The notes: generated by a model not told the origin, from the sequence alone. 52,185 bases of DNA from Chthoniobacterales bacterium (GCA_035567015.1 DATMPQ010000166.1:1-52185); one strand, 5' to 3'; shown: positions 5,306 to 50,408, counted from the stretch's first letter. A program made the numbers and translations.

Positions 5306-8300
5306 GTGGGCGAAGATGGCCAGGCAAAATTCCAGAGGCGTGGGAAATGGCGGGGCCGTGCGCTCATTGCCTTGGCTGTGCTCTTCGGATTGGTTCTAAT
5401 CTTTCATCGACCCTTATTGCTGGGCTTGGGCCGGCAGATTGTGCTGCATTACGCTGCGCGAGAACACGTGAAGGCCGAGTTTCGTCTCGAGGGCACGGTG
5501 TTCAACGGTTTGGTCATGCGAAATCTTCACGCCGTGCGAATCGGCCCTGGGCCGATCGAATCGATCGACGCGGAGACAGTGCGCGCTGATTATAGTTTGC
5601 TTGCGCTCCTCCTCCACGGCCCGTCGCAGCTGCTGCGAAATGTGGAAGTCCGCTCGGCACAGATCGTTTTGAATCCGGCCAAGGCGGCCTCAAGGCCGCA
5701 TAAGAAAATCCGGCTGCCGGCGTTGTTTCCGGAGCGTGGGAAATTTGTCGATACAACCCTGATCGTGCGAGGCGCTCCGCGCGATCTCGCGATCGAACAT
5801 GTCGATCTTGATTTGGATCCGGGCAGGCCCGGCGAATTGCGGATCGACAAGTTGCAACTGCCGGCAGGACAGAGCTGGCGAAAAATTTCGGGGCAAACTT
5901 CTTATACAAACAAGAGCCTGATTCTGCGCGATCTAGCGCTCAACGATCAAGAGCGCATTCGATTGCTAAATGTCGATGCATCGAAGATTGCCGCGAAAAC
6001 TTTGTCGATGAATCTCGAGGCAGTGATCGGGGCGGGAACGATTTCAGGTTCGATGACGCTGAATGAAACGCGTTCTTCGCTGAATACGAGGGTTCATTTC
6101 CTTGGAGAAAGGATCGAGGCAGGCGCGCTCAACAAATACCTGGGTCTGCCCGAGGGATTCATCGCCGGCCAAATCGAGCGTTTCAGTCTCGATGGAACGG
6201 GCATGCTGAACAAACCGAACTCTTGGAGCGCGACGATGTCTGCACAAGCCAACGATCTGCGCCAGCAACAGATCACCTTTGATCATTGCGTCTTCGAACT
6301 TTCCGCGCAGCAGGGGCGGGCGATTTTGCAATCAGCGGACATGGTCCAGGGCAAGAACGCGTTTCATCTCCGCGGTGCCGCCGAGCTGCCGGCCGACCTC
6401 AAACAATTCGGACGCAGCCCGGCGACACTGGAAATTACCGCTGCGGCGCTCGATCTCGAGCGATTGACGGCAGGAACGGCGCAGCCGTTGACGGGCTCGG
6501 CCCAGATTCAGGGCAAGATCGAGATCAAGAACGGGAAGATTGATGCCAACTTCATGGCGTCGGGGGGTTCGATTGGATTTGAGAACGGCACGATCGAAAA
6601 GCTCAGCGTTAAGCTTAGTACATCTAAGATAATGCCGGCGTCTAATATAAGAAAATCCTGGTTCGCCGATCTTCGCTCCGCGGTGGACCTGGAGATAACC
6701 AATGTACGTTATCGGGATTATGCGATTGATTCAGCGGAAGGAGCGCTCCGCGGCGCCGATGACGTGCTCAGGCTCGAACGCCTCAATCTAAGGCGAAACC
6801 AAAACGACCTCACTGTTCGCGGCCGATATCGGTTGCCGGAAGAGTTGCGCATGGCCGCGTCGCAGTCAGCGCAGGTGGATCTTTCGTGGAACGCGACCGA
6901 GCTCGGTGATTATTGGATCTCCGATTCGCCGGACAAGGTCACTGGGCCATTGCACATTGCAGCGCAGATTGAGCAGAAGCAGGGACTCAGTGACGGCCAA
7001 ATCACAATCTTCGGATCGAATCTTAAGATGCGAGATCTGCTCTTCAAGCAACTGAGCTTGCAATGCTCGATCTCGAACAAGGTGATTTACGTGAATGATT
7101 TCACCGCGAGTTTGAATGAACGCGATTTTATCGGCGCGAACGGGCTCGTCGATCTTCGCGGCCCGCATCGCTACCGCGGAAACGTTTCGGCGAGTGTTTC
7201 GGACCTATCGACGCTCGAACCGTTGCTCGCTGCTTATGGAAATGAGCACAAATTGGCGGGATCGTTCTTTATCAATTGGGACGGCCGTGGCGAAACAGCA
7301 ACGACGTTCCAACATTCAGGGAAACTGAAGCTTTCTCTCGAGAAAGGCCGCTACGGCGATTTGCAATCGTTGCAGGCGAATGCCGAAGCCACCTATTCGC
7401 CGGCTGGTTTGAATGTTCCGATTCTCTTTCTCGGCAGCAACAAGATGGATTTTCAAGCGATCGCTCGAGCAAGTGGGTTAACGCTTGAGCTTACAAAGAT
7501 CCAGCTTGATCAGGACGCGGCCAAATATGCTTCGGGCTATGTCTCGGTCCCGTTTATTTGGAAGAACCTTGGGACACGTGCGCCAGTATCTCCGTCTAAT
7601 GGAAAGGTGACGGCGACCTTTCAATCGGAAAACATCGACATCAAAAGGCTTTTCGAGGATGTGGGCGTAAAACCGGCGGCCTCGGGGACTGTGAATGTGA
7701 AGTTCGACGCGCAAGGAACCCTCGCGGATTTGAGCGCGCGGCTGGACGTGCAGATGCGCGATGTCCGGAGCGAGCAACTGCCCAAGTTGGAGCCGGCGAC
7801 ACTCGATCTTACCGCGCAGGCGCAACACAACCAACTGAACGTCTCAGGCAAGCTGCAACAGGCCAAAATTCAACCCCTGGAACTAACAGCGAACCTGCCG
7901 TTCAATACGGCAAAAATTCTGCGCCAGCGGAAGGTGGATGAGACCACGCCGCTTACCGCAAAAATCCGGTTGCCGCGAAGTTCAGTAAATTTCCTGCGAC
8001 AATTTGTACCCGCGATTCAGCAACTCGATGGCGACGTGGCGTTGGATGTAAATCTGGGTGGAACGATCGGGCGCCCCCTTTTCACGGGCGCCGGCGACAT
8101 GACTGTGAATCTCGCCCGGTTTAGCGATCCGACGCTGCCCGCGCTGACAAATTTCAAGGGCCGGCTCAACTTTGCACGTGACGCGTTGACCTTGGAGCGG
8201 TTCGGAGGCGAACTTGCCGGCGGCCCGTTTTCGGTGACTGGCCGCATTACATTTCCGAAACTGACCGCCGCGAATCTGGATCTGCAATTGAAAGCCAACA

Positions 8301-16153: not shown

Positions 16154-16341
16154 TTTTGGCTAACAGGCGCTGTTCTTGCCGGCGATCCAGAGGCGGGTTT
16201 CTCTTGACAAACGGGCGTATTTATCAAACTCTGGGAAACAACTTTGAATCGGGGAGACGACGCCTCCCGGTAGGCTTCTTTCGTCCTGTTTCAGAGTTGC
16301 CACTCGCAGAATCAAGCACCGGGGAAACAAAGGAATCATAT

Positions 16342-17886
16342 ATGCATCATCTTATTCGGCTAACGAATACAAGTTCATCCGTACAAACTTCGAACCGCCC
16401 CAAATGCTTTCGGGGTTTTCTTCTCATTGCGGTCGCGTTCGTCTGCCTTGGGCTTTCGCCGACAGTGCAAGCCGTGCTTCCCTCGCCAACGCCGGACGGC
16501 GGCTATGGCGGCGGCAACACGGCCGAGGGCACGAACGCTCTCTTTAGCCGTACCACCGGCGTCTGGAATACGGCCCTGGGTTATCAAGCGCTGTATCACG
16601 TAACCACCGGCAACCAGAACACCGCGACTGGTTTTCAAACGCTCTTTAAGACCACCACCGGCAGCTTGAGCGTGGCCAACGGTTCGCAAGCGCTGTATAA
16701 CAACACCACCGGCAGCTTTAACACGGCCACCGGGTTTCGCACGCTCTACACCAACACTACTGGCAGCAATAACACGGGTAATGGGTATGAAGCGCTCGCT
16801 CTCAATACCACCGGCCAGGATAACGTTGCCAACGGTTTTTTCGCGCTCTTTAACAACACGACCGGCAACTTTAATACGGCCATCGGGTTCCAAGCGCTCT
16901 CTGCCAATACCGCTGGCATCGATAACACGGGTAGTGGGTATCAAGCGCTCGCTTCCAATACCACCGGCCAGGATAACGTCGCCAACGGTTTTCTCGCGCT
17001 TTTTAGCAACACCACCGGCAGTGATAACACGGCCAATGGAGTTCAAGCGCTCTCCTCAAATACGGCGGGTGACCATAACATGGCCACCGGGTTTCAAGCG
17101 CTCTTTAGGAACACCACCGGCTTCGCTAACACGGCCAATGGTACAGAGGCGCTCTTTGGCAACACCACCGGCAGCGATAACACGGCTAGTGGCTTTCAAG
17201 CGCTCACCTCTAATACCGCTGGCACCGATAACACGGCCAACGGTCTTGACGCGCTTTTTGGCAACACCACCGGCGCCCGTAACATTGGTTTGGGCAAAGC
17301 AGCCGGCTTTTTTCTTACTACGGGCAATGACAATATTGATATCGGCAACGTTGGTGGTACTGGCGAGTCCAGCACCATCCGCATCGGCACCGAAGGAACC
17401 CAGACGGCCACCTTTATCGCCGGCATTAGCGGGGCAACGGTTGCAGGAGGCGTAGGGGTAATTATAGATACCAACGGTCAGCTCGGCACGGTACTTTCCT
17501 CGGAGCGTTTCAAGGACGACATCAAGCCGATGGACGAGGCGAGCGAAGCGATTCTCGCGCTCAAACCGGTCACCTTCCGCTACAAGCACGAGCTTGATCC
17601 CAAAGGCATCCCGCAGTTTGGCCTCGTGGCCGAGGAAGTGGAAAAGGTCAATCCCGCTCTGGTGGCTCGCGACGGTCAGGGGAAAGTTTACACTGTGCGC
17701 TACGAGGCGGTGAACGCGATGTTGCTCAACGAGTTCCTCAAAGAACACCGCACAGTCCAAGAACAGCAGAAGGAAATTAAGGCCCTCGCCGCTCAACTAA
17801 AGGAGCAAGCGGCGCTACTCCAGAAGGTAAGCGACCGGCTCGAACTGAGCAAACCCGCTCCGCAAATGGCCGTCAATAGTCAGTAA
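16342..17886 (+). CDS. Secreted repeat protein with phage tail-fibre-like C-terminal intramolecular chaperone (peptidase S74-like) domain
   Basis: AAGGAA RBS-like sequence before ATG 16342 and a signal/anchor FLLIAVAFVCLGL. There are fifteen 17-aa repeats. C-terminal ERFKDDIKPMD...LKPVTFRYKHELDPKGIPQFGLVAEEVEKVNPALV, then a coiled coil. Confidence 0.75.
   Translation: MHHLIRLTNTSSSVQTSNRPKCFRGFLLIAVAFVCLGLSPTVQAVLPSPTPDGGYGGGNTAEGTNALFSRTTGVWNTALGYQALYHVTTGNQNTATGFQTLFKTTTGSLSVANGSQALYNNTTGSFNTATGFRTLYTNTTGSNNTGNGYEALALNTTGQDNVANGFFALFNNTTGNFNTAIGFQALSANTAGIDNTGSGYQALASNTTGQDNVANGFLALFSNTTGSDNTANGVQALSSNTAGDHNMATGFQALFRNTTGFANTANGTEALFGNTTGSDNTASGFQALTSNTAGTDNTANGLDALFGNTTGARNIGLGKAAGFFLTTGNDNIDIGNVGGTGESSTIRIGTEGTQTATFIAGISGATVAGGVGVIIDTNGQLGTVLSSERFKDDIKPMDEASEAILALKPVTFRYKHELDPKGIPQFGLVAEEVEKVNPALVARDGQGKVYTVRYEAVNAMLLNEFLKEHRTVQEQQKEIKALAAQLKEQAALLQKVSDRLELSKPAPQMAVNSQ
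16516..17280 (+). repeat. Coding tandem repeat, 15 x 51 nt (17-aa unit N-T-A-x-G-x-x-A-L-x-x-N-T-T-G-x-x)
   Basis: Counted from NTAEG (16516) to the residue before NIGLG (17281), which is exactly 15 units. It explains the long spurious antisense ORFs here. Confidence 0.85.
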
Positions 17887-23454: not shown

Positions 23455-23559
23455 GTAACCGCGACACCGCCGATTGCAGGGCGTTTATGTGAAACCCCGA
23501 ACCAAATTAACAGATGTCGTTGTCGTTGACTTCGCGTAGACGGGTCTTATTCTGAACGC

Positions 23560-25731
<2,172 letters not shown>

Positions 25732-25748
25732 CGTACTCTTTACGAACA

Positions 25749-25832
25749 GAATGGAGCGAATGGGTTGAGCGACATAGAAGGCAAAGCCGCGAGGGTAGCA
25801 GCGAGCGAGCATGGGCAGCGAGTGAGTTTCAA
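25749..25832 (+). repeat. 84-nt intergenic element, copy 1 (GAATGGAGCGAATGG...GAGTTTCAA)
   Basis: Aligns over its full length with 50325-50408 (same strand) and with the reverse complement of 26133-26216. Confidence 0.85.
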
Positions 25833-26132: not shown

Positions 26133-26216
26133 TTGAAACTCGTTCGTTGCCCACAATCACTCGCTCCTACCCTCGTCGCTTTACCTTCTATGTCGCGTGC
26201 CCCACGCGCTCCATTC
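26133..26216 (-). repeat. 84-nt intergenic element, copy 2 (inverted relative to copy 1)
   Basis: The reverse complement reads gaatggagcgcgtggggcacgcgacatagaaggtaaagcgacgagggtaggagcgagtgattgtgggcaacgaacgagtttcaa. Confidence 0.85.
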
Positions 26217-26305: not shown

Positions 26306-27814
26306 ATGAACTTTCTCAAACGCCGTTTCACAGGGGCTCCGGAGGGAACGGCCGTGCTGTTCTTCATTCAAATCTTCGCGACGCTCGGCTTCGCCGTCCT
26401 CTACTCGACCCTGGTCCTCTACGCGACGAAGCATCTGCATCTCGGCGTGAAAGAGGCCACCACGTTGATGGGTGTGTTCGGCGCCTTCAACTACGGCCTG
26501 CACCTCTTCGGCGGTTACCTGGGCGGCCGCTTCCTTTCCAACCGCAACCTGTTCGTCGGGGGCATGGCGCTGCAAGTGATCGGCTGCGCCTGTATCGCGA
26601 CCGGCACCCTCGTGTTGTTCTACGTCGGCCTCGCCCTCTTCCTCACCGGCAGCGGCCTCAACGTCACTTGCATCAACATGATGCTCACGCAGCGCTTCAC
26701 CCCGGAGGACCCGCGCCGCGAAGGAGCCTTCCTCTGGAATTACGCCGGTATGAATGTCGGCTTTTTCGTCGGGTTCAGTGTCGCCGGCCATTTCCAGGCC
26801 ACCGAGAGCTACTCGAACCTCTTCATCTTCGCGACGCTCGGCAACTTCGTCGCCATCATCCTCGCCCTGTTCAACTGGAAGACGCTGACCGACCGCAACA
26901 CGCCGCTGCTCGACGCGACGCCGAAGCAGTTCCGGCTGCGGCAGCTCGTCGGCCTCGCCATTCTCATCGGCCTCGTTCCCGTCGTGTGGTTCATGCTCCA
27001 GCGGCCCGGCGGCACCGAGACGATCATCAAAGCGATCTGCGCCGCGGTCGCGCTCACGCTAATCTACCTAACGGTCCGCCACCGGGATCGCCGCGAGCGG
27101 CGGAACATGACGGCGTATCTGATTCTGACCATTGGCTCGCTGATGTTCTGGTCGCTCTACCAAATGGCACCGAACGGACTGATGCTGTTCGCGGTCAACA
27201 ATGTCAACCTGATGGTTGGTAGCGTGAGGATTCAGCCGCAGTGGATCCAGAACATCAACACTGTCATTATCGTGCTCGGCGGGCCGGTGCTCGCGGCGCT
27301 CTTCACTCGCATGCGCGGGCGTGGGTGGAGAATCGACATACCGAAGCAGTTTGCGGCGTCGCTGCTGTTGATGGCGATCGCCTTTTTTGTTCTGCCGTTC
27401 GGCATCAAGCTGGCCGGAGGCGACGGCAAGAGCGCGTTCGTGTGGCTATTCCTCAGCTACGTGCTGCAAAGCATCGGTGAGCTGCTCATCTCTCCCATCG
27501 GATACGCGATGATCGGCAAGCTCGCGCCGAGGCAGTACCAAGGAGTGATGATGGGCAGTTGGATGCTCGTCACCGGTCTCGCATCACTGTTTGCAGGCGA
27601 CTTCTCGGGCATGATCCCCGAGCCGACCGGCGCCACGGCGATTGCCACCAATGCCGGGTACGCGAAGCTGTTCGCCGAGCTTGGTGCCGGCAGCCTCGCG
27701 GTCGGTATTGCGCTCGTCGTGCTGATTCCGTTCCTGCGCAAACTGATCACCGACAAGGCCGAGACGACGCTTCCAGCGGAAGGGCCGGCCGCGACGGTTG
27801 TCCCCGTCGCTTGA
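26306..27814 (+). CDS. MFS transporter, divergent POT/PTR2 (peptide:proton symporter)-like
   Basis: About 14 TM segments. FGGYLGGRFLSNRNLFVGGMALQVIG resembles the POT GGxLADRxLG block, and an AAAGGA RBS-like sequence precedes the ATG. Confidence 0.65.
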   Translation: MNFLKRRFTGAPEGTAVLFFIQIFATLGFAVLYSTLVLYATKHLHLGVKEATTLMGVFGAFNYGLHLFGGYLGGRFLSNRNLFVGGMALQVIGCACIATGTLVLFYVGLALFLTGSGLNVTCINMMLTQRFTPEDPRREGAFLWNYAGMNVGFFVGFSVAGHFQATESYSNLFIFATLGNFVAIILALFNWKTLTDRNTPLLDATPKQFRLRQLVGLAILIGLVPVVWFMLQRPGGTETIIKAICAAVALTLIYLTVRHRDRRERRNMTAYLILTIGSLMFWSLYQMAPNGLMLFAVNNVNLMVGSVRIQPQWIQNINTVIIVLGGPVLAALFTRMRGRGWRIDIPKQFAASLLLMAIAFFVLPFGIKLAGGDGKSAFVWLFLSYVLQSIGELLISPIGYAMIGKLAPRQYQGVMMGSWMLVTGLASLFAGDFSGMIPEPTGATAIATNAGYAKLFAELGAGSLAVGIALVVLIPFLRKLITDKAETTLPAEGPAATVVPVA

Positions 27815-27874
27815 GAACCGCTTCGGTTTGCGAAGCGTTCTGTTCTCCGGGGAGCACAGGCGCCTCGCCTGTTG

Positions 27875-27896
27875 GTGATGGCGCCCTCGCCATCAC
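27875..27896 (+). terminator. Candidate terminator hairpin between convergent transporter and exonuclease genes
   Basis: GTGATGGCG-CCCT-CGCCATCAC (9-bp stem) followed by GGACTTTTCATTTG. A second imperfect hairpin lies at 27815-27840. Confidence 0.5.
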
Positions 27897-27934
27897 GGAC
27901 TTTTCATTTGATTCCCAACGCCAGTATCCCATCG

Positions 27935-28780
27935 TCATCGGCCCGCAGCCTTTTCGCAACGCTCGAGTAGTCGCGGCGCTTCGATCCGTTTCGCCCACTT
28001 CGCGAACCCCGGCGTCGCACCGCGCCAGCGCAGGGTCTCGACCTTCTTGAACAGCGGCGCATCGGTGCGCAGGGTCGCGAGATTCTTGAAGAGCAATGCG
28101 AGATCGCGCTGTTTGCCGAGAACGTTTGACGGAAACTTTTCGATCGAACCGTGACGATTCAAAAGCTGGGCGGCGGTCCTGGCGCCGATGCCAGGGATGC
28201 CGGGGTAACCGTCGGCCGCATCGCCCACGAGCGCGAGCAGATCCGGAATGAGCTGCGGGCTGACGCCGAACTTTTCGCGTACGCCAGCAGCATCGCGAAT
28301 CGTTTTGCGCCGGCCATTGATCTGCACCACGCGTGTGCCTCGCACGCATTGCGCCAGATCTTTATCGGGCGTCCAGATGGCGACTTTGTCGACCTTCTTG
28401 TCCTTCGACGCGAGATGCGCGGCCGAAGCGAGCGCATCATCCGCTTCGAGCTCGATCATCGGCCAGACGACAACGCCCATCGCCACGAGCGCCTCCTCGA
28501 GCGGATGAAATTGCGCGAGCAGGGCGGGCTCGATCCCGGCGTCGGTCTTGTAGTCCGCCCAAAGCCGATTGCGAAACGACTCGATCACGTGGTCGGTGGC
28601 GACACCGAGATAAGTGTCACCGTTCTCCAGCATTTGCAGAACGGTCTGCAGCACACCGACGACCGCGCCGTAAGGCCGGTCGACGCCACGTGAGGCGGAG
28701 CCTTTTACGTGGGTAAACCGGCGCAAACCGTAGAAGTGACGGAAGAGTTCGTAGGTGCCGTCAACGAGGTGGACGATCAT
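27935..28780 (-). CDS. Stand-alone 5'-3' exonuclease / flap endonuclease (PIN-like 53EXO + H3TH)
   Basis: MIVHLVDGTYELFRHFY N-terminus, acidic-cluster blocks (VATDHVIESFR, ELEADDALAS) and H3TH DGYPGIPGIGARTAAQLL. Start set at ATG 28780. Confidence 0.8.
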   Translation of the reverse strand: MIVHLVDGTYELFRHFYGLRRFTHVKGSASRGVDRPYGAVVGVLQTVLQMLENGDTYLGVATDHVIESFRNRLWADYKTDAGIEPALLAQFHPLEEALVAMGVVVWPMIELEADDALASAAHLASKDKKVDKVAIWTPDKDLAQCVRGTRVVQINGRRKTIRDAAGVREKFGVSPQLIPDLLALVGDAADGYPGIPGIGARTAAQLLNRHGSIEKFPSNVLGKQRDLALLFKNLATLRTDAPLFKKVETLRWRGATPGFAKWAKRIEAPRLLERCEKAAGR

Positions 28781-28844
28781 TTTGGTTAACGTTTTCTTCG
28801 CGCAGTCCGTGGCTTGCCGTAGCTTTAGCGTAGGTGGGTGCCCA

Positions 28845-28940
28845 ATGAAAATCACCGAAGAAGAAGCGTTACAAGTTGGTCTCGAGCAAAAAGCCAAGGA
28901 GTTTGTGAAAAAAGGCTCGGAGGTTTACGTGAAAGCGTAG
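28845..28940 (+). pseudogene. Orphan 3'-terminal fragment of thiC (homologous to 25597-25731)
   Basis: [31 protein letters not shown] versus the thiC end MKITE[13 aa][26 protein letters not shown]. 26/31 residues are identical, with an 18-nt identical core AGCGTTACAAGTTGGTCT (25656-25673 / 28865-28882). Confidence 0.75.
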
Positions 28941-28971
28941 TAAAAACGCCGACGTCGGTTCCCTCCCGATA

Positions 28972-30408
28972 ATGCGCTCTAATCTTCAGCTCGCTGCATC
29001 GACTAATGCGATGGAATCTCAGCGAAACATGCTTTTCATCAGTCATGCTACGCCCGAAGACAATGAATTCGCGCGCTGGCTCGCTTTGCAGCTAGGTAAG
29101 GAAGGATTTCCAGCCTGGTGCGATCAGACGAAGCTCTTGGGTGGTGAGCCTTTTTGGGAAGAGATTGAAGACGCCATTCGAAACCGAACTCGGCGTTTTC
29201 TTTTTGTTCAGTCGCGCAACTCTAATCAAAAAGACGGCTCGTTAGATGAACTCGCACTGGCGAAGACCATCGGAAAGCAGCTTGGGGATAGCCATTTTAT
29301 CACAGCGATCAGGATCGATGACTTGCCGTTTGCAGAGTTCAACATCCGTCTACACAAACTCAACTCTGTTGACTGCGCTCGGAATTGGCTGGCGGGCTTT
29401 AAGCAGTTGATCAAACGTCTGCAGGAAGACGGTATCGAAAAGGACAAAAGATTTACTCCGGATAGCATCGCGGTTTGGTGGCGCGAAAACTTCGGAGAAG
29501 AAGAAGGTGTTTCGGAAGAGACGGACTTTTACTGCTCGAATCGACTTCGACTACTCAGTCTTCCTCCGCAGATAAACATTATTAAACTCGAGCACGCGTT
29601 GCCCGAAGACACCGACGTCACGACTGCACCGTTTCCAATTTCGCCTCATGGTCGGCTTCTCGTGTCCTTCGCGACCTTTCGGGATTTATTACCGTTCTTT
29701 GAAACTACGCATGTTGGAAACGACGGTACCGAGACGATGGCCACAGCGCATCTTCTAGAGAACGGCCTTGTTCCTGCGATGGAGAGCCGAGCTGCGCGTA
29801 ATCACGTCACTTTTTTATTGCGACAAGCATTTCAGCGATTCGCGATATCACGTGGATTGCACGAATACGCACTAACTGGAAATAGGCGCTTCTTTTGGTT
29901 TCCGAACGATCTTGTTGAGAAGGATCGAATCAGTTTTAAAGCGCTAGACGGCAGCAATACTTGGAAGGCCGTAGTCGGTTTCAAATCGTTGAAGAGTAAA
30001 GAGGAGCAGATTCGGATTCGCAATTGGCACTTCGGAATCGAAGGCCTCCCGCATATCGGGTTCGATCGATATTTGAGCGTCTTACCTCACGTGGCGTTTT
30101 CGGAAAACGGTGAACTGTATGAGAGTGCAAGAAAGCAGCATGCCTATCGAAGGAGCCAATGTCGAAGCTGGTACAACGATGATTGGCGTGATCGATTACT
30201 CGCGACCCTCACCTTTCTAACAGGCGCGGGCGCTGAGTTGAGTATCCCGTTGGCTCCGGATTGCAGCGCAACGTTTGAAGCTCTGCCGGAAGTCATAGAA
30301 AGCCCGGTGACGTACGTACGAACAGCGGACGTTGACGAAAGTGAGGTGGCAGAAGAAGACGGGGAATTCGAGACCGAGGGTATCGAGGAGGATGAGGACG
30401 AGCTATGA
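28972..30408 (+). CDS. TIR-APAZ protein (NADase effector subunit of a SPARTA-type short-Argonaute system)
   Basis: TIR block MLFISHATPEDNEFARWLALQL...FLFVQS...SLDELALA. APAZ-like blocks WHFGIEG and SWYNDDWRDRLLATLTFL, and an acidic tail EVAEEDGEFETEGIEEDEDEL. Alternative starts at 29011 and 29029 would give the usual short N-terminus before FISHA. Confidence 0.9.
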   Translation: MRSNLQLAASTNAMESQRNMLFISHATPEDNEFARWLALQLGKEGFPAWCDQTKLLGGEPFWEEIEDAIRNRTRRFLFVQSRNSNQKDGSLDELALAKTIGKQLGDSHFITAIRIDDLPFAEFNIRLHKLNSVDCARNWLAGFKQLIKRLQEDGIEKDKRFTPDSIAVWWRENFGEEEGVSEETDFYCSNRLRLLSLPPQINIIKLEHALPEDTDVTTAPFPISPHGRLLVSFATFRDLLPFFETTHVGNDGTETMATAHLLENGLVPAMESRAARNHVTFLLRQAFQRFAISRGLHEYALTGNRRFFWFPNDLVEKDRISFKALDGSNTWKAVVGFKSLKSKEEQIRIRNWHFGIEGLPHIGFDRYLSVLPHVAFSENGELYESARKQHAYRRSQCRSWYNDDWRDRLLATLTFLTGAGAELSIPLAPDCSATFEALPEVIESPVTYVRTADVDESEVAEEDGEFETEGIEEDEDEL

Positions 30409-31928
30409 CGTCCATGGTTCGGATACGTGAGCCGCGATTGGAGTTCGCATTCGGTCAACAACTCGAAGATCCACGCGACGGTTTAACGATGTTTGGTCCG
30501 TATGATCATGGGCAAGGCGGCGCGTACGGGATTCGTGCAGGCGTGATCGGCACAAAACAGGGGATTGAACGCTTTGGAAAATGGGTGAACTCAATTCAAC
30601 GAGCCGTCGGGTTACGGGATGCAGCGAGATTTCGTCCGCCATTTCCTGGCTTTGAAGCAGCGTTTCAAATCGCTTGGAGTCCGAAACCTGCGCTCGCCAT
30701 TACGATCGATGGAAATCATCTCGATCGGTTAATTAGGGTCGATGACAAATACAAACGCATTTACGGCACGGTCGACTATTTCGCGTCGAAGCTAATCGAA
30801 GCTAAAACGGCCGAAGAGGAAAAACCCGATCTTTGGTTTGTCGTCATACCAGACGAAGTGCACAAACTTTGCCGACCTGAGTCGATCGTGCCACGGCTGG
30901 GCCGAGTGCAGGCGGAAGATCGAATGAAACCGTCGATGGCGCGCGCCTTCATTCGTCAGAGACCATTGTTCGCTGAGTGGGAGGAGCAAGCCGAACCGTA
31001 TTATTATGAGCCAGATTTCCGACAGCAACTAAAAGGTCGACTTTTGTGGGACGGAATTCTGACACAAATAGTCAAAGAGAGTACAATCGCGCCATTTGAC
31101 TTTCTTAATGCATTTGGATATCCCATTCGAAATCTCGGCAAACGGGGCGCCGAGGTTGCATGGAACATGGCGTCAGCGGCGTACTACAAGGCGGGTTCTC
31201 GGCCATGGAAGCTCGCAGGTGTGCGGCCAGGCGTCTGCTATCTCGGTTTGGTTTTCAAGAACGACGAAAAAAATGTCGATCAGTCCGCAGCCTGCTGCGC
31301 GGCACAGATGTTTTTGGATTCCGGCGATGGCGTAGTCTTCAAGGGTCGCGTTGGTCCTTGGTATACGGGAAAGCGGGGCCGCTATCATTTGTCGGCGGCA
31401 GCGGCGAAGGAACTTCTCGAGAAAGCAATCGCAGATTACAAATTAAAAAGGGGAGTTTTGCCGGAAGAGATTTTCATCCACGCGCGGACACGCTTCGATG
31501 ATGAAGAATGGAAAGGATTTCTTAAGGCTGCCGCGGACGGGACGAGAGTTGTCGGGGTTACAATCCGAAGGACACAAGATTACCGCCTGTTTCGTCGCGA
31601 CAGCAACCTGCCAATCCTTCGCGGACTGGCGCTGATCGACAGCGACCGTCACGCGTTCCTGGCCGCAAGTGGTTTTGTGCCGCGTCTGCAAACGTATTAT
31701 GGTTCAGAAGTCCCTGTCCCTTTATCAATTTCCGTGAATCGCGGCGATGCGGACATTCACGTCGTGCTTCAAGACATCCTCGGACTTACAAAGTTGAACT
31801 ACAATTCATATCGTCATTCCGATGGAATGCCGGTCACCCTTAAGTTCGCGGATGCTGTCGGCGAGATTCTTATAAGTGGCCCGCCGCGTGACGAAGATCC
31901 GCCATTGCCATTCCGGCATTACATTTAA
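30405..31928 (+). CDS. Short prokaryotic Argonaute (MID + PIWI only, predicted catalytically inactive)
   Basis: 507 aa. REPRLEFAFGQQLEDPRDGLTMFGP, MID-pocket region DLWFVVIPDEVHKLCRP / NMASAAYYKAGSRPWKL, PIWI blocks VCYLGLVFK, CCAAQMFLDSGDGVVFKG, IFIHARTRF, LTKLNYN, PVTLKFAD and C-terminal PFRHYI. ATGA start/stop overlap with the TIR-APAZ gene. Confidence 0.9.
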   Translation: MTSMVRIREPRLEFAFGQQLEDPRDGLTMFGPYDHGQGGAYGIRAGVIGTKQGIERFGKWVNSIQRAVGLRDAARFRPPFPGFEAAFQIAWSPKPALAITIDGNHLDRLIRVDDKYKRIYGTVDYFASKLIEAKTAEEEKPDLWFVVIPDEVHKLCRPESIVPRLGRVQAEDRMKPSMARAFIRQRPLFAEWEEQAEPYYYEPDFRQQLKGRLLWDGILTQIVKESTIAPFDFLNAFGYPIRNLGKRGAEVAWNMASAAYYKAGSRPWKLAGVRPGVCYLGLVFKNDEKNVDQSAACCAAQMFLDSGDGVVFKGRVGPWYTGKRGRYHLSAAAAKELLEKAIADYKLKRGVLPEEIFIHARTRFDDEEWKGFLKAAADGTRVVGVTIRRTQDYRLFRRDSNLPILRGLALIDSDRHAFLAASGFVPRLQTYYGSEVPVPLSISVNRGDADIHVVLQDILGLTKLNYNSYRHSDGMPVTLKFADAVGEILISGPPRDEDPPLPFRHYI

Positions 31929-31966
31929 GTAGAAGATCTAAAGCGTACCTGGTTGGTCAAAGCAGT

Positions 31967-33061
31967 TCACTTTCGCGTGCTCGGGTCCTCAGCGAGAATG
32001 CGCGTGCCATAGTCAACAGGGTCTACGCCAACGAAATCTTCCATTCCAAGTTGCTCAGGAGTGACATCACGTGAAGGAATTATTCCGTCCATCCAGGCCT
32101 TTTCAGCAAGGCGGCTAAGAAAATCTTTTGCGACACCTTCAACTCGCGTTTGATTTGCCATTGGCGCAAAGGCATAACCTGCCATTCCCGCAAAGAGGTC
32201 GGCCATTTGGACGCTGTGCGATGAATGGGATGTTGTGGTTACAATGTCGGCGACTTTCAACGGATAGGTGACGTTCCGCGTTGGGGAACCCGCGATGTGT
32301 TCGCGAAGACCTTCATCCGAAAATCGAAGGAGTAGATCGCGTTCTTGCGCTAGCGTCTTCGATTCGTCGGCTAGGATGATAAATCTCTCGTCCAAAGTTT
32401 TACCCCAAACATCGGACAGCGTGTGATAAGCCGGAATAAGTGGATCGAGTTCACTCGCTGATAGGTGCGGCAGCCACGTGTTCGGGCGCTCACAAGCCAT
32501 AATTATTGGGGCGAAAAATTCTCCGATCGTGTGCGGAAAACGATGTTGTAAGTGAGCGAGAGCGGACACCGCCTCGCGATGAAATTGCTGAAGCGTGTCT
32601 GTATCTCTTTGTCGAACAAGGCGGACAAATAGATTCGTAAAACGATCAGCGCGCGTCTTACCGAGATAAACAGGCAGCGTCAACGTAAGGAGATTTGCAA
32701 GCCCGCGCGCCGCGCCTTGCTCGTACAGATTGACGCCGAAAGAACGGGCGCTTGGCTCGTGAATCAAGTCAACGAGCTTGGTCATTGCCATGTATCTCTT
32801 GAAGATTACGAATATCTTCACATTCGCTGGCGTTACCCAATCCATCTCCAGCAACTTCGAGAGCAACTGCAACTGTTTCGGATTCCGTCGCATCTTGCTA
32901 AATTTCCACTCGGTCGTTTTGACAGAGCTTAGAAGTTGGGTCACTTCCGCGATCTCGTGCTCGCCGGCGCGAACGGAGGCGAGGCAGAACACTGGCTGAT
33001 CCGCAGTAATCAGGTCGCTGCCTGTATTGCCGGTCTCGTCGAAAGCGATTTGCTGCACCAA
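31967..33061 (-). CDS. DUF3800 domain-containing protein
   Basis: N-terminal IAFDETGNTG (DESG-type motif) and C-terminal SHSSHSVQMADLFAG (xQxAD motif) match the two conserved DUF3800 signatures as I recall them. Non-ATG start (TTG 33061 or GTG 33058). Confidence 0.65.
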   Translation of the reverse strand: MVQQIAFDETGNTGSDLITADQPVFCLASVRAGEHEIAEVTQLLSSVKTTEWKFSKMRRNPKQLQLLSKLLEMDWVTPANVKIFVIFKRYMAMTKLVDLIHEPSARSFGVNLYEQGAARGLANLLTLTLPVYLGKTRADRFTNLFVRLVRQRDTDTLQQFHREAVSALAHLQHRFPHTIGEFFAPIIMACERPNTWLPHLSASELDPLIPAYHTLSDVWGKTLDERFIILADESKTLAQERDLLLRFSDEGLREHIAGSPTRNVTYPLKVADIVTTTSHSSHSVQMADLFAGMAGYAFAPMANQTRVEGVAKDFLSRLAEKAWMDGIIPSRDVTPEQLGMEDFVGVDPVDYGTRILAEDPSTRK

Positions 33062-33361
33062 CTAAGATAGCACGCGGTCGTCGATCTTGCGCGCGGTTGC
33101 ACGCTGGTCGTTTTCGTTTTTCTTGAAGCATGCTACTCGCTTGGTTCCACGCAGTGTGAGGCGCGGCCTGTCTTCAGCGTGTGAACGACACCCTGCAGTT
33201 TCGCGATTTAACCTAAAAGAAACCAGAAGGCAGTCGCCGGGGTCACTTCTAGATCTGACCCCAACTGTTTGCCTTGCAAAATGGGAACGGAGCCCCTGGG
33301 CCCCATAATTCCACGATAGGCTGACCGTCAGCCGTGATGATTTCGGCGCTCTTTACCTTGC

Positions 33362-34825
33362 TTAACTGCCCAATAAGATCGACTGCGGAGCCAAAGAGTT
33401 TTCTGTTTCTCTCCGGCGGGCTAGAAGCGCGAGGAGGGGCCCGGTCATGATCGTTGTTACCAAGGCCATGATGACTAGCATCGTAAATATGCGTTGCGAT
33501 AGGATACCGAGGTCGTAGCCGATATTCAGCGCGATCAGTTCCATTAGGCCCCGTGTGTTCATTAACGCACCAAGCTGCATCGACTCGCGCCAGTCTAGTC
33601 CCGTCAGCTTTGCGGCGAAGGCACTGCCGCCCAGCTTGCCGAGGGTAGCGACGCCGATGATAACAAGGCAAACCATCCATTCGTGTGTGCCAGAGATAAG
33701 GCCAATCCGAGTCCGCAGCCCGGTAAAGGCGAAGAAGACCGGCAGCAGTAACACTGAACTGAGGTGCTCGACACGAATGCCCAGTTTCTCGCGGAAACCA
33801 CCGATCGACGGCATCACTGTCCCTGCCAAAAACGCTCCGAAGAGGGCGTGAATACCGATCAACTCGGTGCAGAAGGCGGAGATAAGGACCAGGCCAACTA
33901 CGGCCGTTAAGAGGCTAGCGCTCGGTTCTTCCCGCTCCAGCGCTTCCCGGCCCATCCAACTCGGCAGACTTGGCCGGATAACAAATAGCATCAGGCCGAC
34001 GAAAACTACGACCAACAGGAAAGTAAAAACGCCGCCGCCAACGCTTGTCGCGCGCGCGATTGCGACGACAAAGGCGAGAATGGTCCAGGCTGTAACATCA
34101 TCCACCGCCGCGCACGCCGTCGCGGTGCTACCGAGCGCCGTCTTAAAGATGTTACGGTCCTTCAGGATCCGCACCAGCACCGGGAAAGCAGTAATGCTCA
34201 TGCTAATTCCCATGAATAACGCAAACGCGATAAAGCTGGCGCCTGGTTGCGCCAGTTCATGATAAAGAAACCACGCCAGCGCGACCCCGAGCAGGTAAGG
34301 AATAACAATGCTCGAGTGACTCACCACGATCGCAGTCGGCACCTTTTGCTTCAGTTGGAGAACGTCCAGTTCCATCCCGACGGCAAACATAAAGAGGCAG
34401 ACACCGATCTGACTAAACAATCTGAGCGGCTCGAAAGAGGAGGTGGGAAAGACAAACTGAAACGCCGCGGGAGCGATCCACCCAAAGAGCGACGGGCCGA
34501 GCAGAATACCAACAACCATTTCTCCTACGACGGCCGGCTGCCCTAACCGTCGTGCTATTCTGCCGGCCAGTCCCGCTGCGGTGATGATAATGAAAACTTG
34601 GAGCAACAGCCGACTAAGCGGGCTCGTGCCGTTTTGCCAAAGGCTGGTCTTTGCGGCGGAAAGGAAATCAGCGCCGGCTGGAGCGGCATGCTCGACCTGT
34701 ACCGGCGCAACCGCTCCCGCAGCGGCCACGGGCGGCGCGAGGTGAGTGCCCGCCTGCAGGATGAAGAAAATGGCCAGGCCGGCGATGCTGACAACAACGA
34801 GATACAACTGTGCTTTACGTTTCAT
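33362..34825 (-). CDS. Cation:proton antiporter (CPA2 / Na_H_Exchanger family)
   Basis: About 12-13 TM helices (GQPAVVGEMVVGILLGPS, MELDVLQLK). The ATG overlaps the stop of the upstream LysR gene (ATGA). Confidence 0.8.
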   Translation of the reverse strand: MKRKAQLYLVVVSIAGLAIFFILQAGTHLAPPVAAAGAVAPVQVEHAAPAGADFLSAAKTSLWQNGTSPLSRLLLQVFIIITAAGLAGRIARRLGQPAVVGEMVVGILLGPSLFGWIAPAAFQFVFPTSSFEPLRLFSQIGVCLFMFAVGMELDVLQLKQKVPTAIVVSHSSIVIPYLLGVALAWFLYHELAQPGASFIAFALFMGISMSITAFPVLVRILKDRNIFKTALGSTATACAAVDDVTAWTILAFVVAIARATSVGGGVFTFLLVVVFVGLMLFVIRPSLPSWMGREALEREEPSASLLTAVVGLVLISAFCTELIGIHALFGAFLAGTVMPSIGGFREKLGIRVEHLSSVLLLPVFFAFTGLRTRIGLISGTHEWMVCLVIIGVATLGKLGGSAFAAKLTGLDWRESMQLGALMNTRGLMELIALNIGYDLGILSQRIFTMLVIMALVTTIMTGPLLALLARRRETENSLAPQSILLGS

Positions 34826-35751
34826 AGTCTGGTAGCGCTGTTTGGCTTGATTAGTTTTGGAACAACCGCGCGTGCAAGGCGGTCGAAAGCTTGTACGGTG
34901 CTGTTACCGGCCGAGCCCTTTAGACGCAGAAGCCCAATCTCGAGCTTCAGGTTTTTGCCGCGAAGACGAATCGCTTTCAGTTTGAGGCCGTGCATTCCTA
35001 GCAGCGCAATTTTCGGCATTAGCGCAGCAGCCTTCAAAGGTGCTAATGATCGAAGAAGCGTCTCAATTGCACTGACTTCTGCGATCGTTTTCGGGCGGAC
35101 CTGATGATTTCGACAGAGTTCATCTGTCATCCGGCGCGTCACGAAGCTATCCGGCAATTGAACGAGTCTCTGCTGATGGATTTCGGGTAAGTCAATAACC
35201 TGCCGGTTCCACCACGGGTGCGCTTTAGGAACGATCAGAGCAAATTCGTCACTGCAGAGACGTTCGTAACGTAGATTTGGCGAGTGGCGCGTGATGAAAC
35301 CGAAGCCAAGGTCCATTCGGCCTTCTTCCAATGCGGTCTCAATCTCGGTAGAAGAGACTTCTTTAACACTCACGCTGATACTCGGATGGCGAGCCGCGAA
35401 TTCGCCCAGCAACGTAGGCACCAGGGCTGTGTCGAGGACAGGCACGACTCCCAAGCACAACGTGCCATGTAGTTGCTCTGGCCCACTACCGACCTCTTGG
35501 AGGAAAATCTCATACTGCCGAAGAAGTGAACGGGCGTGCTCTTGAAAAACTCGGCCCGCGGCGGTGAGAAGAATGCGTTTTCCGCGACGCTGAAATAAGG
35601 TGACTCGAAGCCGGGCCTCTACGTCTCGCATTTGTTGGGAGATGCTCGGTTGCGAACTGCCAAGATGATCTGCCGCGCGGCTGAAGCTGCCGGCTTCGGC
35701 GATTGCCAGGAAGTAACGCAGGTGGCGAATCTCAACTGGATCGTGAATCAT
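34822..35751 (-). CDS. LysR-family transcriptional regulator
   Basis: N-terminal wHTH IRHLRYFLAIAEAGSFSRAADHLGSSQPSISQQMRDVE plus a LysR substrate-binding domain. Confidence 0.85.
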   Translation of the reverse strand: MIHDPVEIRHLRYFLAIAEAGSFSRAADHLGSSQPSISQQMRDVEARLRVTLFQRRGKRILLTAAGRVFQEHARSLLRQYEIFLQEVGSGPEQLHGTLCLGVVPVLDTALVPTLLGEFAARHPSISVSVKEVSSTEIETALEEGRMDLGFGFITRHSPNLRYERLCSDEFALIVPKAHPWWNRQVIDLPEIHQQRLVQLPDSFVTRRMTDELCRNHQVRPKTIAEVSAIETLLRSLAPLKAAALMPKIALLGMHGLKLKAIRLRGKNLKLEIGLLRLKGSAGNSTVQAFDRLARAVVPKLIKPNSATRL

Positions 35752-35783
35752 TGCACTTAACGCTCCTCAAACACTCGGAATAA

Positions 35784-35802
35784 ATCGATAGATATTTTCG
35801 AT
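35784..35802. promoter_or_regulatory. Possible LysR-type T-N11-A dyad in the LysR promoter region
   Basis: ATCGATAGATATTTTCGAT is an imperfect inverted repeat (ATCGATA / TTTCGAT) 33 nt upstream of the LysR start. TTTTCGATAG recurs at 35816-35825. Confidence 0.3.
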
Positions 35803-35993
35803 GGTTGCATTTATTTTTTCGATAGTAAAGATTTGTTTTTCTCTTCTGGGTTTGCCCTCACGTGCCAATTTGGAAAGCGGCGGATTAACCTGATCCGTTT
35901 TGCTGGTTCACAGGAACGCCGGGCCCTCACCGGGCAGCCGGAGGCAGCCGGGGTCACATCTAAAGGACGTAAAGCGGTGCCACGTCCTGACAC

Positions 35994-50324: not shown

Positions 50325-50408
50325 GAATGGAGCGAATGGGGTGAGCGACATAGAAGGTAAAGTGACGAGGGTAGGAGCGAGTGAGCGCGGGCAGCGAGCG
50401 AGTTTCAA
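50325..50408 (+). repeat. 84-nt intergenic element, copy 3
   Basis: gaatggagcgaatggggtgagcgacatagaaggtaaagtgacgagggtaggagcgagtgagcgcgggcagcgagcgagtttcaa, followed by CTGAAAG words up to 50447. Confidence 0.85.

Follow-up and report, generated by a model that had tools for sequence, protein, structure and literature searches.

A very probable SPARTA operon in a low-GC3 defence islet of a Chthoniobacterales soil bacterium

We analysed a 52,185-nucleotide (nt) stretch of DNA from a Chthoniobacterales bacterium (GCA_035567015.1 DATMPQ010000166.1:1-52185), called the window from here on, and within it a two-gene operon at positions 28972 to 31928. This locus very probably encodes a canonical SPARTA system, a type of defence against plasmids and phages, in which a short prokaryotic Argonaute (pAgo, here Ago) of clade S2A is paired with a TIR-APAZ protein. 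The sequence-level features of such systems are kept, and the function is assigned by homology. The operon is new, but it is canonical for its family, which is very large and has been studied well. It lies in a small, horizontally acquired defence islet with low GC content at third codon positions (GC3) on the chromosome of a soil bacterium of the Verrucomicrobiota.

The two genes and their parts are listed here. Residue numbers of the TIR-APAZ protein follow the longest open reading frame (ORF), which has 478 amino acids (aa). Map stands for the SPARTA proteins of Maribacter polysiphoniae.

28972..30408, + strand: TIR-APAZ gene; longest ORF 478 aa; stop codon TGA at 30406-30408
29035..29412, + strand: predicted TIR NADase domain, aa 22-147, with an S24-H25 motif; codons verified
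29152-29154, + strand: F61, putative NAD-stacking residue, aligned to Map F45
29248-29250, + strand: E93, putative catalytic Glu in LDELA, aligned to Map E77
29329-29331, + strand: F120, putative NAD-stacking residue, aligned to Map Y105
29482..30315, + strand: APAZ domain, approximately aa 171-448, from the alignment to solved TIR-APAZ chains
30316..30405, + strand: acidic C-terminal tail, aa 449-478, VRTADVDESEVAEEDGEFETEGIEEDEDEL
30405..31928, + strand: short prokaryotic Argonaute (MID + PIWI only), 507 aa
30873..31190, + strand: predicted MID pocket for the guide 5' end, with R157, R206, K210, Q221, K224, T227 and K262; codons verified
31251..31853, + strand: equivalents of the slicer tetrad in PIWI, V283, Y327, R361 and D483
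31923..31925, + strand: C-terminal Ile507; Ile in 179 of 183 family members

Both proteins match SPARTA profiles and solved SPARTA chains along essentially their whole length. The first gene product matches Pfam TIR_2 at 1.1e-17 (aa 22-147), and the PADLOC profile Aga_TIR-PNTD1-PNTD2 matches it at full length (1.8e-118, aa 17-469). Its best phmmer matches in the PDB are 8qlo_A (3.7e-58), 8fex_A (1e-57) and 8ifk_A (7.6e-54), and the alignment to the solved chains 8qlo_A and 8fex_A spans aa 17/18 to 421/473. The second gene product is a MID and PIWI chain without N or PAZ domains. PADLOC pAgo_I matches it at 3.5e-189, with query residues 3-507 on positions 3-493 of the 493 in the profile. In the PDB it finds 8qlo_B (2.4e-147), 8fex_B (about 2e-147) and 8ifk_B (8.3e-146), and its residues 2-507 align to residues 2-507 of the solved 507-aa short pAgos 8qlo_B and 8fex_B. 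These relatives were deposited as "Piwi domain-containing protein", and the long-pAgo profiles of PADLOC match the PIWI half of Ago, at about aa 250-490. We take the PDB entries 8fex, 8ffi, 8i87 and 8oz6 to be MapSPARTA; 8qlo and 8ifk are presumably the entries listed under BabSPARTA (from a Bacillales bacterium) and CrtSPARTA (from Crenotalea/Thermoflavifilum thermophila).

Functional residues were mapped by taking their roles from structural papers and transferring them through alignments of 183 Ago and 62 TIR-APAZ sequences. The Map sequences were rebuilt from alignments. Their numbering was validated, since all seven published Ago residues and E77 fell on the right letters. The active site of the Map TIR domain consists of the catalytic E77 and the NAD-stacking F45 and Y105 (PMC10355822), and E77 is essential (PMC10355822; PMC10899771). 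E93 of the window protein aligns with E77. This column holds Glu in 61 of the 62 TIR-APAZ sequences, and the remaining one is gapped there. Counted from Met14, the residue would be E80.

The APAZ domain holds the conserved blocks WHFGIEG and SWYNDDWRDRLLATL. R394 and R398 are basic residues of its entry helix and stand at the positions of R362 and K366 in BabSPARTA, which are in contact with the acidic tail (PMC10899771). The window protein has such a tail, with 16 D/E and one K/R in 30 aa and a net charge of -15, which is the family median. Of the 62 aligned sequences, 61 have a tail with a net negative charge. For the SPARTA systems Bab, Map and Crt, it is established that the acidic tail occupies the nucleic-acid channel and must be expelled for activation (PMC10899771; bioRxiv 10.1101/2023.07.12.548734). 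By analogy, aa 449-478 are predicted to be an autoinhibitory plug of the guide/target channel.

The guide pocket of Ago can be followed residue by residue from Map, where R152, H207, K211, Q222, R225, T228 and K263 contact the guide (PMC10355822). For the phosphate pocket, Map H207, K211, Q222 and K263 correspond to R206, K210, Q221 and K262 in the window. The K, Q and K columns are invariant or nearly so across the 183 Agos. For the other contacts, Map R152 and T228 correspond to R157 and T227. Ago ends on Ile507, and the carboxylate of the C-terminal Ile coordinates the Mg2+ that holds the guide 5'-phosphate (PMC10474274). In the PIWI domain, Map V284, Y328, R362 and N484 replace D541, E577, D611 and D727 of CbAgo (PMC11156904). 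Acidic residues occupy none or one of these four columns in all 183 family members, and one of four in the window. Since the tetrad reads V/Y/R/D, the window Ago is predicted to be unable to slice. Only a few of the reported interface positions were mapped (K140, D142, Y261, R504 and H505), and these are compatible with the published Ago-Ago and TIR interfaces.

Much of this had been proposed in a preliminary description of the locus, made from the sequence before any search. The two ORFs and their ATGA overlap lie at the coordinates it gave. The peptide blocks it quoted are all present, each in a block conserved with the solved SPARTA proteins. It had named the Glu of DELA as the TIR catalytic residue, a MID pocket in Ago, and GLV and HARTRF as the readings at two slicer Asp positions, and the aligned columns bear out all three. 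Its claim of an acidic tail that sits in the channel agrees with the charge of the tail and with the literature on channel occupancy.

A mechanism can be transferred by homology from the Map, Crt and Bab systems. The two coupled genes would yield a 1:1 heterodimer of TIR-APAZ and Ago. In the resting state, the acidic tail (aa 449-478) would plug the basic guide/target channel while MID restrains the TIR domain. Ago would load 5'-phosphorylated small RNAs, with the phosphate held by R206, K210, Q221 and K262 and by Mg2+ at the Ile507 carboxylate. Complementary single-stranded DNA (ssDNA) of a highly transcribed, multicopy invader would then pair with the guide, which would expel the tail and remodel the PIWI sensor loop. 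Ago-Ago dimerisation followed by tetramerisation would form composite TIR active sites around E93 that hydrolyse NAD(P)+. The cell would arrest or die, and the invader would be lost from the population. For the window system, we infer the heterodimer from the conserved translational coupling and from homology; the guide type, the NADase output and the defence phenotype are likewise carried over by analogy.

The coupling is seen at the junction of the two genes, where ATGA at 30405-30408 joins the TIR-APAZ stop codon to the Ago start codon (codons verified). Of 80 loci in species-representative genomes, 75 have TIR-APAZ immediately upstream of Ago. The commonest spacing of start and stop among the 74 pairs with both genes extracted is an offset of -3, that is, a 4-nt overlap. 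All 12 junctions that were read directly, the window included, have (A/G)TGA, and in four the Ago has no Met at position 4. One database record gives a 504-aa version of Ago. Because (A/G)TGA is present in every junction read and Met4 is missing from four, the comparison supports a translationally coupled start at Met1 (30405), not the 504-aa version. Shine-Dalgarno-like GAGGAGGA strings lie 13-20 nt 5' of the overlapping Ago start (window 30380-30404). They arise from the GAG/GAA-rich codons of the acidic tail, similar strings are present in relatives, and they could aid translational coupling. For TIR-APAZ, the true start is probably Met14 (ATG at 29011), which would give a protein of 465 aa. 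This start is likelier because homology to the closest relative, L086, begins exactly at the Met14 ATG (about 29009-29011) and the L086 gene encodes 464 aa.

The family to which the operon belongs is large and widely spread. More than 4,238 proteins match Ago at E<=1e-30. Relatives are found across Verrucomicrobiota, Acidobacteriota, Planctomycetota, Chloroflexota, Latescibacterota, Proteobacteria and other phyla. They are also found on 101 PLSDB plasmids, of which 52 are conjugative, and there the annotation is nearly always "hypothetical protein". The closest relative overall is L086, with an Ago 91% identical to that of the window. The nearest Ago in a species-representative genome is 75% identical and comes from a Chthoniobacter metagenome-assembled genome (MAG). 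Elsewhere, SPARTA is flanked by Type ISP and Type III restriction-modification genes, SIR2/STALD, integrases, ParA, a type IV secretion system coupling protein, HipA, AbiEii, HEPN and ArdA, which are typical of defence islands and mobile elements. In several genomes (L071, L077 and L080, with a match at 6001 to about 6890, and L079), only the C-terminal 230-300 residues or so of Ago were matched, with no detectable TIR-APAZ upstream. One of these genomes is an Akkermansia muciniphila MAG, and such matches may be truncated or decayed SPARTA remnants.

Comparison with characterised systems places the operon closest in design to SPARTA. It resembles MapSPARTA in gene order, in the Ago length of 507 aa, in the TIR site of F, E and an aromatic residue, in the acidic C-terminal tail, in the K211/Q222/K263 pocket, in the C-terminal Ile and in the loss of the DEDX tetrad. 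It differs from MapSPARTA by an insertion of about 18 aa in APAZ (at about aa 320-345), by a MID 'insert' region that is 7 aa shorter and by its host, which belongs to the Verrucomicrobiota and not to the Bacteroidota. In BLASTP comparisons with the Maribacter proteins, Ago is 46.1% identical and TIR-APAZ 30.7%. The phmmer scores for BabSPARTA and CrtSPARTA are as strong as those for MapSPARTA. Relative to BabSPARTA (PMC10899771), K140 and D142 stand at the Ago-Ago salt-bridge positions K135 and D137, Y261 stands at Y262, and the tail-contacting positions of APAZ are kept as described above. The window has R504/H505 in contrast to K504/Y505 in BabSPARTA, and H is the commonest family residue there.

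Other pAgo systems share part of this design. In SPARSA (SIR2-APAZ) and SPARDA (DREN nuclease-APAZ), too, the pAgo is short and catalytically dead, its partner is an effector fused to APAZ, and activation depends on recognition of a target through the guide. Their profiles and chains give weak matches to the PIWI half of the window Ago (PADLOC Aga_SIR2-PNTD 2.8e-24; 9jsb, 9qbl and 8in8). Unlike theirs, the window effector is a TIR domain, not SIR2 or a nuclease, and the acidic tail at the C terminus is reported to be specific to SPARTA (bioRxiv 10.1101/2023.07.12.548734). Long active pAgos such as CbAgo and TtAgo have homologous MID and PIWI domains and bind the guide 5'-phosphate in a metal-dependent way. 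The window Ago differs from these in that N and PAZ are absent and D/E/D/D has become V/Y/R/D. Its output would be NAD(P)+ depletion by the partner protein, not target cleavage.

Some of the results weigh against the assignment to canonical SPARTA. First, identity to the characterised systems is only moderate, at 46% for Ago and 31% for TIR-APAZ. The preliminary description had called the locus an apparently uncharacterised orthologue of a described family; the orthologue is canonical. Second, a Pfam search of Ago gave no match at E<=10, Piwi (PF02171) included. The preliminary description had proposed profile searches as a check and had counted missing hits as a refutation. The TIR_2 match (1e-17) and the full-length PADLOC matches for TIR-APAZ and pAgo_I came out as it expected; the missing Pfam Piwi match formally falls under its refuting clause. 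A precomputed Pfam domain is also missing from all 120 listed Ago homologues. We therefore read the missing match as a blind spot of the Pfam model for short pAgos, not as a counterargument to PIWI homology. The evidence for that homology comes from the pAgo profiles of PADLOC and from the PDB chain matches, not from Pfam. Such Ago genes are annotated "hypothetical" because Pfam has no model that detects them.

Third, three guide contacts differ from Map, with R206 in place of H207, K224 in place of R225 and E250 in place of H251, and the guide preference could be different. One alternative built on these residues is that the input or output of the system has changed, so that DNA or 5'-OH guides are preferred or the TIR domain makes a signalling nucleotide. 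K224 replaces the Arg that is reported to read the 2'-OH of the guide (PMC10355822), and SPARTA activation by ssDNA guides is reported (PMC11851103). However, substitutions of this type are common in the family. The first pocket column is His in 122 of the 183 Agos and Arg in 61, which makes R206 a normal family variant; Lys stands at the K224 position in 32 of 183; and Glu is the commonest family residue at the E250 position. The phosphate-binding K, Q and K and the C-terminal Ile are intact, and the operon has no downstream gene for an effector that would receive a signal. A changed input or output is rated as very improbable.

Fourth, a scan for sigma-70 promoters and terminators near the operon found nothing convincing, with sites no commoner than in shuffled sequence, although the consensus is uncalibrated for Verrucomicrobiota. 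This result, together with the thiC-tail pseudogene fragment in the upstream region (described below), would fit a decaying or silent relic, intact in sequence but with expression or function lost in this host. The ORFs are uninterrupted, however, and the functional residues are kept. Between the window and L086, Ago has dN 0.047, dS 1.20 and dN/dS 0.04 (nonsynonymous and synonymous divergence and their ratio). TIR-APAZ has dN 0.12 with dS saturated, and the neighbouring DUF3800 gene has dN/dS 0.12-0.18. Three independent metagenome assemblies carry an identical copy of the locus. These dN/dS values and the identical assemblies argue that the operon is under strong purifying selection and is a maintained, functional-looking system, not a relic. 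We consider the relic the least probable of the alternatives weighed here.

The canonical SPARTA operon stands out from the chromosome around it. GC content is 0.49-0.53 across 29-33 kb, compared to 0.56-0.61 around it. GC3 of the TIR-APAZ, Ago and DUF3800 genes is 0.53-0.55, compared to 0.64-0.65 in the housekeeping genes of the window. Elsewhere, the window consists of chromosomal housekeeping genes, with those for TamB, for one Omp85-family and one SurA-like protein, for an M13 peptidase and for an amidase, and with thiC. The BamA-like and PpiD-like proteins of the window fall into clusters (>=90% identity) with Chthoniobacterales MAG proteins. The surroundings of the island were searched for an integrase, a tRNA gene and terminal inverted or bounding repeats, and none was found. 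Neighbours of the operon are the following.

23680-25731: thiC, protein of 681/683 aa
27935-28780: FEN-like 5'-3' exonuclease
28849..28940, + strand: foreign thiC 3'-end remnant of 92 nt, 31 codons and a stop, seen as a direct repeat and by blastn
31967..33061, - strand: DUF3800 gene, 363/364 aa; Pfam DUF3800 1.2e-7, phrog_12991 1e-33

The interval between FEN and DUF3800 can be compared with loci in which SPARTA is absent. L092 has in common with the window the FEN gene (27932-28785, 84% nt identity) and, at 91% nt identity, the DUF3800 gene together with the region upstream of it (31967-33250). Between them (L092:1701-3699), it carries a gene whose 622-aa product has a HEPN_RiboL-PSP domain and six zinc fingers of the DUF4379 type. 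This HEPN gene stands in place of window 28786-31966, which holds the thiC tail and SPARTA. Homology between the window and L092 breaks at a point 5 nt upstream of the start of FEN and, on the other side, exactly at the stop codon of DUF3800. Because the same flanking genes enclose SPARTA in the window and a HEPN gene in a sister strain, we regard the FEN-DUF3800 interval, on this sequence comparison, as a strain-variable exchange slot for defence cassettes. L093 and L094 share only the DUF3800 gene with the window (31963-33107, about 1.15 kb in L093). There its convergent neighbour encodes a 255-aa endonuclease-type protein (PADLOC PDC-M68A 7e-27, CBASS-effector/SduA-like), followed by a 998-aa TPR protein. 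In all three contexts (the window, L092, and L093 with L094), DUF3800 is convergent, at 38 nt or less, with a differing defence-type cassette.

The thiC remnant lies inside the variable slot, 31 nt upstream of the TIR-APAZ ORF, and is 80-82% identical to the end of the resident thiC (25640-25731). The 223-nt stretch that holds it is absent from L086 and L092, and the remnant is probably non-functional. L092 has a separate 149-aa thiC 3' fragment (L092:5503-5952), about 5.6 kb of cargo away from its full thiC. This suggests that the thiC 3' end is a recurrent point of insertion or recombination in the lineage. The SPARTA cassette probably arrived with the thiC tail of another lineage.

The DUF3800 protein keeps the N-terminal DE and C-terminal QxxD motifs (QMAD at aa 285), and the gene is convergent with Ago across a 38-nt spacer. 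A 4.07-kb block of TIR-APAZ, Ago and DUF3800 (window 29009-33074) is common to L086 at 78% nt identity. The block includes the same 38-nt spacer, and the flanking genes are unrelated. All three genes have low GC3. DUF3800 is an RNase H-like domain that recurs with type VII retrons, Cas12a2/a3 and Cas13 CASK (PMC7736814, PMC10910872, PMC13594972, bioRxiv 10.64898/2026.08.25.746378), and it is also found with several noncoding RNA motifs (PMC5737381 among the sources). An alternative is a three-gene variant, in which DUF3800 is a functional accessory of SPARTA that acts, for example, on RNA:DNA hybrids, in making or removing guides or in resetting the complex. In a broader form, drawn from the three contexts above, DUF3800 would be the constant tail-to-tail partner of interchangeable nucleic-acid-sensing defence cassettes, namely SPARTA, the zinc-finger/HEPN gene of L092, and the nuclease and TPR genes of L093.

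Several results speak against both forms, and we judge the first to be very improbable and the second to be equally so. A tblastn search of the 80 other genome SPARTA loci and a Pfam scan of all 106 ORFs flanking SPARTA loci showed no DUF3800, and the gene is missing beside the 75-84% identical Agos of L083, L084 and L087-L089. As a general partner of SPARTA, it was thus rejected, and the linkage is seen only in L086. Copies at least 90% identical occur without SPARTA (L092:606-1700, L093:10001-11092 and L094:8001-9092). The convergent orientation means separate transcripts, and Map, Crt and Bab SPARTA function as two-gene systems (PMC10899771). A scan of the island with Rfam, including the DUF3800-associated RNAs, gave no match at E<=1, and sequenced phages gave only one weak match to DUF3800. 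Beside a canonical two-gene SPARTA, DUF3800 is probably a neighbour, an independent defence-type gene.

The preliminary description had pointed to the thiC fragment, the DUF3800 neighbour and the FEN nuclease as the context of the operon. All three are real, but as significant context they do not hold up. FEN-like exonuclease, POT transporter and thiC were each considered as SPARTA partners and rejected, since they occur in none of the 80 other SPARTA loci, and DUF3800 is linked only in L086. L092, a locus with no SPARTA, keeps the FEN gene as well. The FEN and ThiC 90% clusters have no other members. GC3 is 0.84 for the POT-family transporter and 0.75 for the FEN-like exonuclease, compared to about 0.65 in housekeeping genes (window 26306-28780). 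These two genes lie between two thiC 3' ends and may be a separate acquisition.

Other features of the window were recorded along the way. The resident thiC is preceded by a TPP riboswitch (23559-23668), which is the sole Rfam match in the window. The thiC gene carries in-frame, low-complexity repeat insertions at 24091-24341, with DNA units of type CTCTCAACTCTCGACTCTCAACCATCAAC, that lengthen the protein to its 681/683 aa. A dispersed repeat of about 84 nt, 80-88% identical between copies, is found at 25749-25832, 26133-26216 (inverted) and 50325-50408. In the intergenic region of thiC and POT, two copies in inverted orientation enclose 300 nt, and L086 has two copies in tandem (364-442 and 446-507) just upstream of SPARTA. 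It has no Rfam match and could be an element like repetitive extragenic palindromes (REP) or miniature inverted-repeat transposable elements (MITE). Among the housekeeping genes, a 576-aa protein (16156-17886, + strand) has a Peptidase_S74 (endosialidase chaperone) domain and matches phage virion/tail-fibre PHROGs (phrog_23837, 8e-57). It may be what is left of a prophage, or a tail-fibre-like protein that was domesticated. A LysR and K+/H+ antiporter pair (window 33353-35842) is 90.6% identical at the nt level to L090/L091, with different flanks on both sides; around the island, the genome is a mosaic. An empty-site comparison through L090/L091 was uninformative, as only LysR and the antiporter are in common.

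The analysis documents SPARTA in an abundant, uncultured soil lineage, the Chthoniobacterales, which has little significance beyond cataloguing. The subclade is 46% and 31% identical to the studied systems and could add to the diversity on which SPARTA-based tools for nucleic-acid detection can draw. Annotation based on Pfam is blind to this Ago family, and public records say "hypothetical protein". Only two elements are less ordinary, namely the co-inheritance of the DUF3800 gene and the slot at which cassettes are swapped. The slot is a clean natural example of the exchange of defence cassettes at a fixed chromosomal position with the same flanking genes. If the accessory role of DUF3800 were true, it would make the locus a three-component SPARTA variant and would provide a link to the unexplained association of DUF3800 with retrons, Cas12a2/a3 and Cas13.

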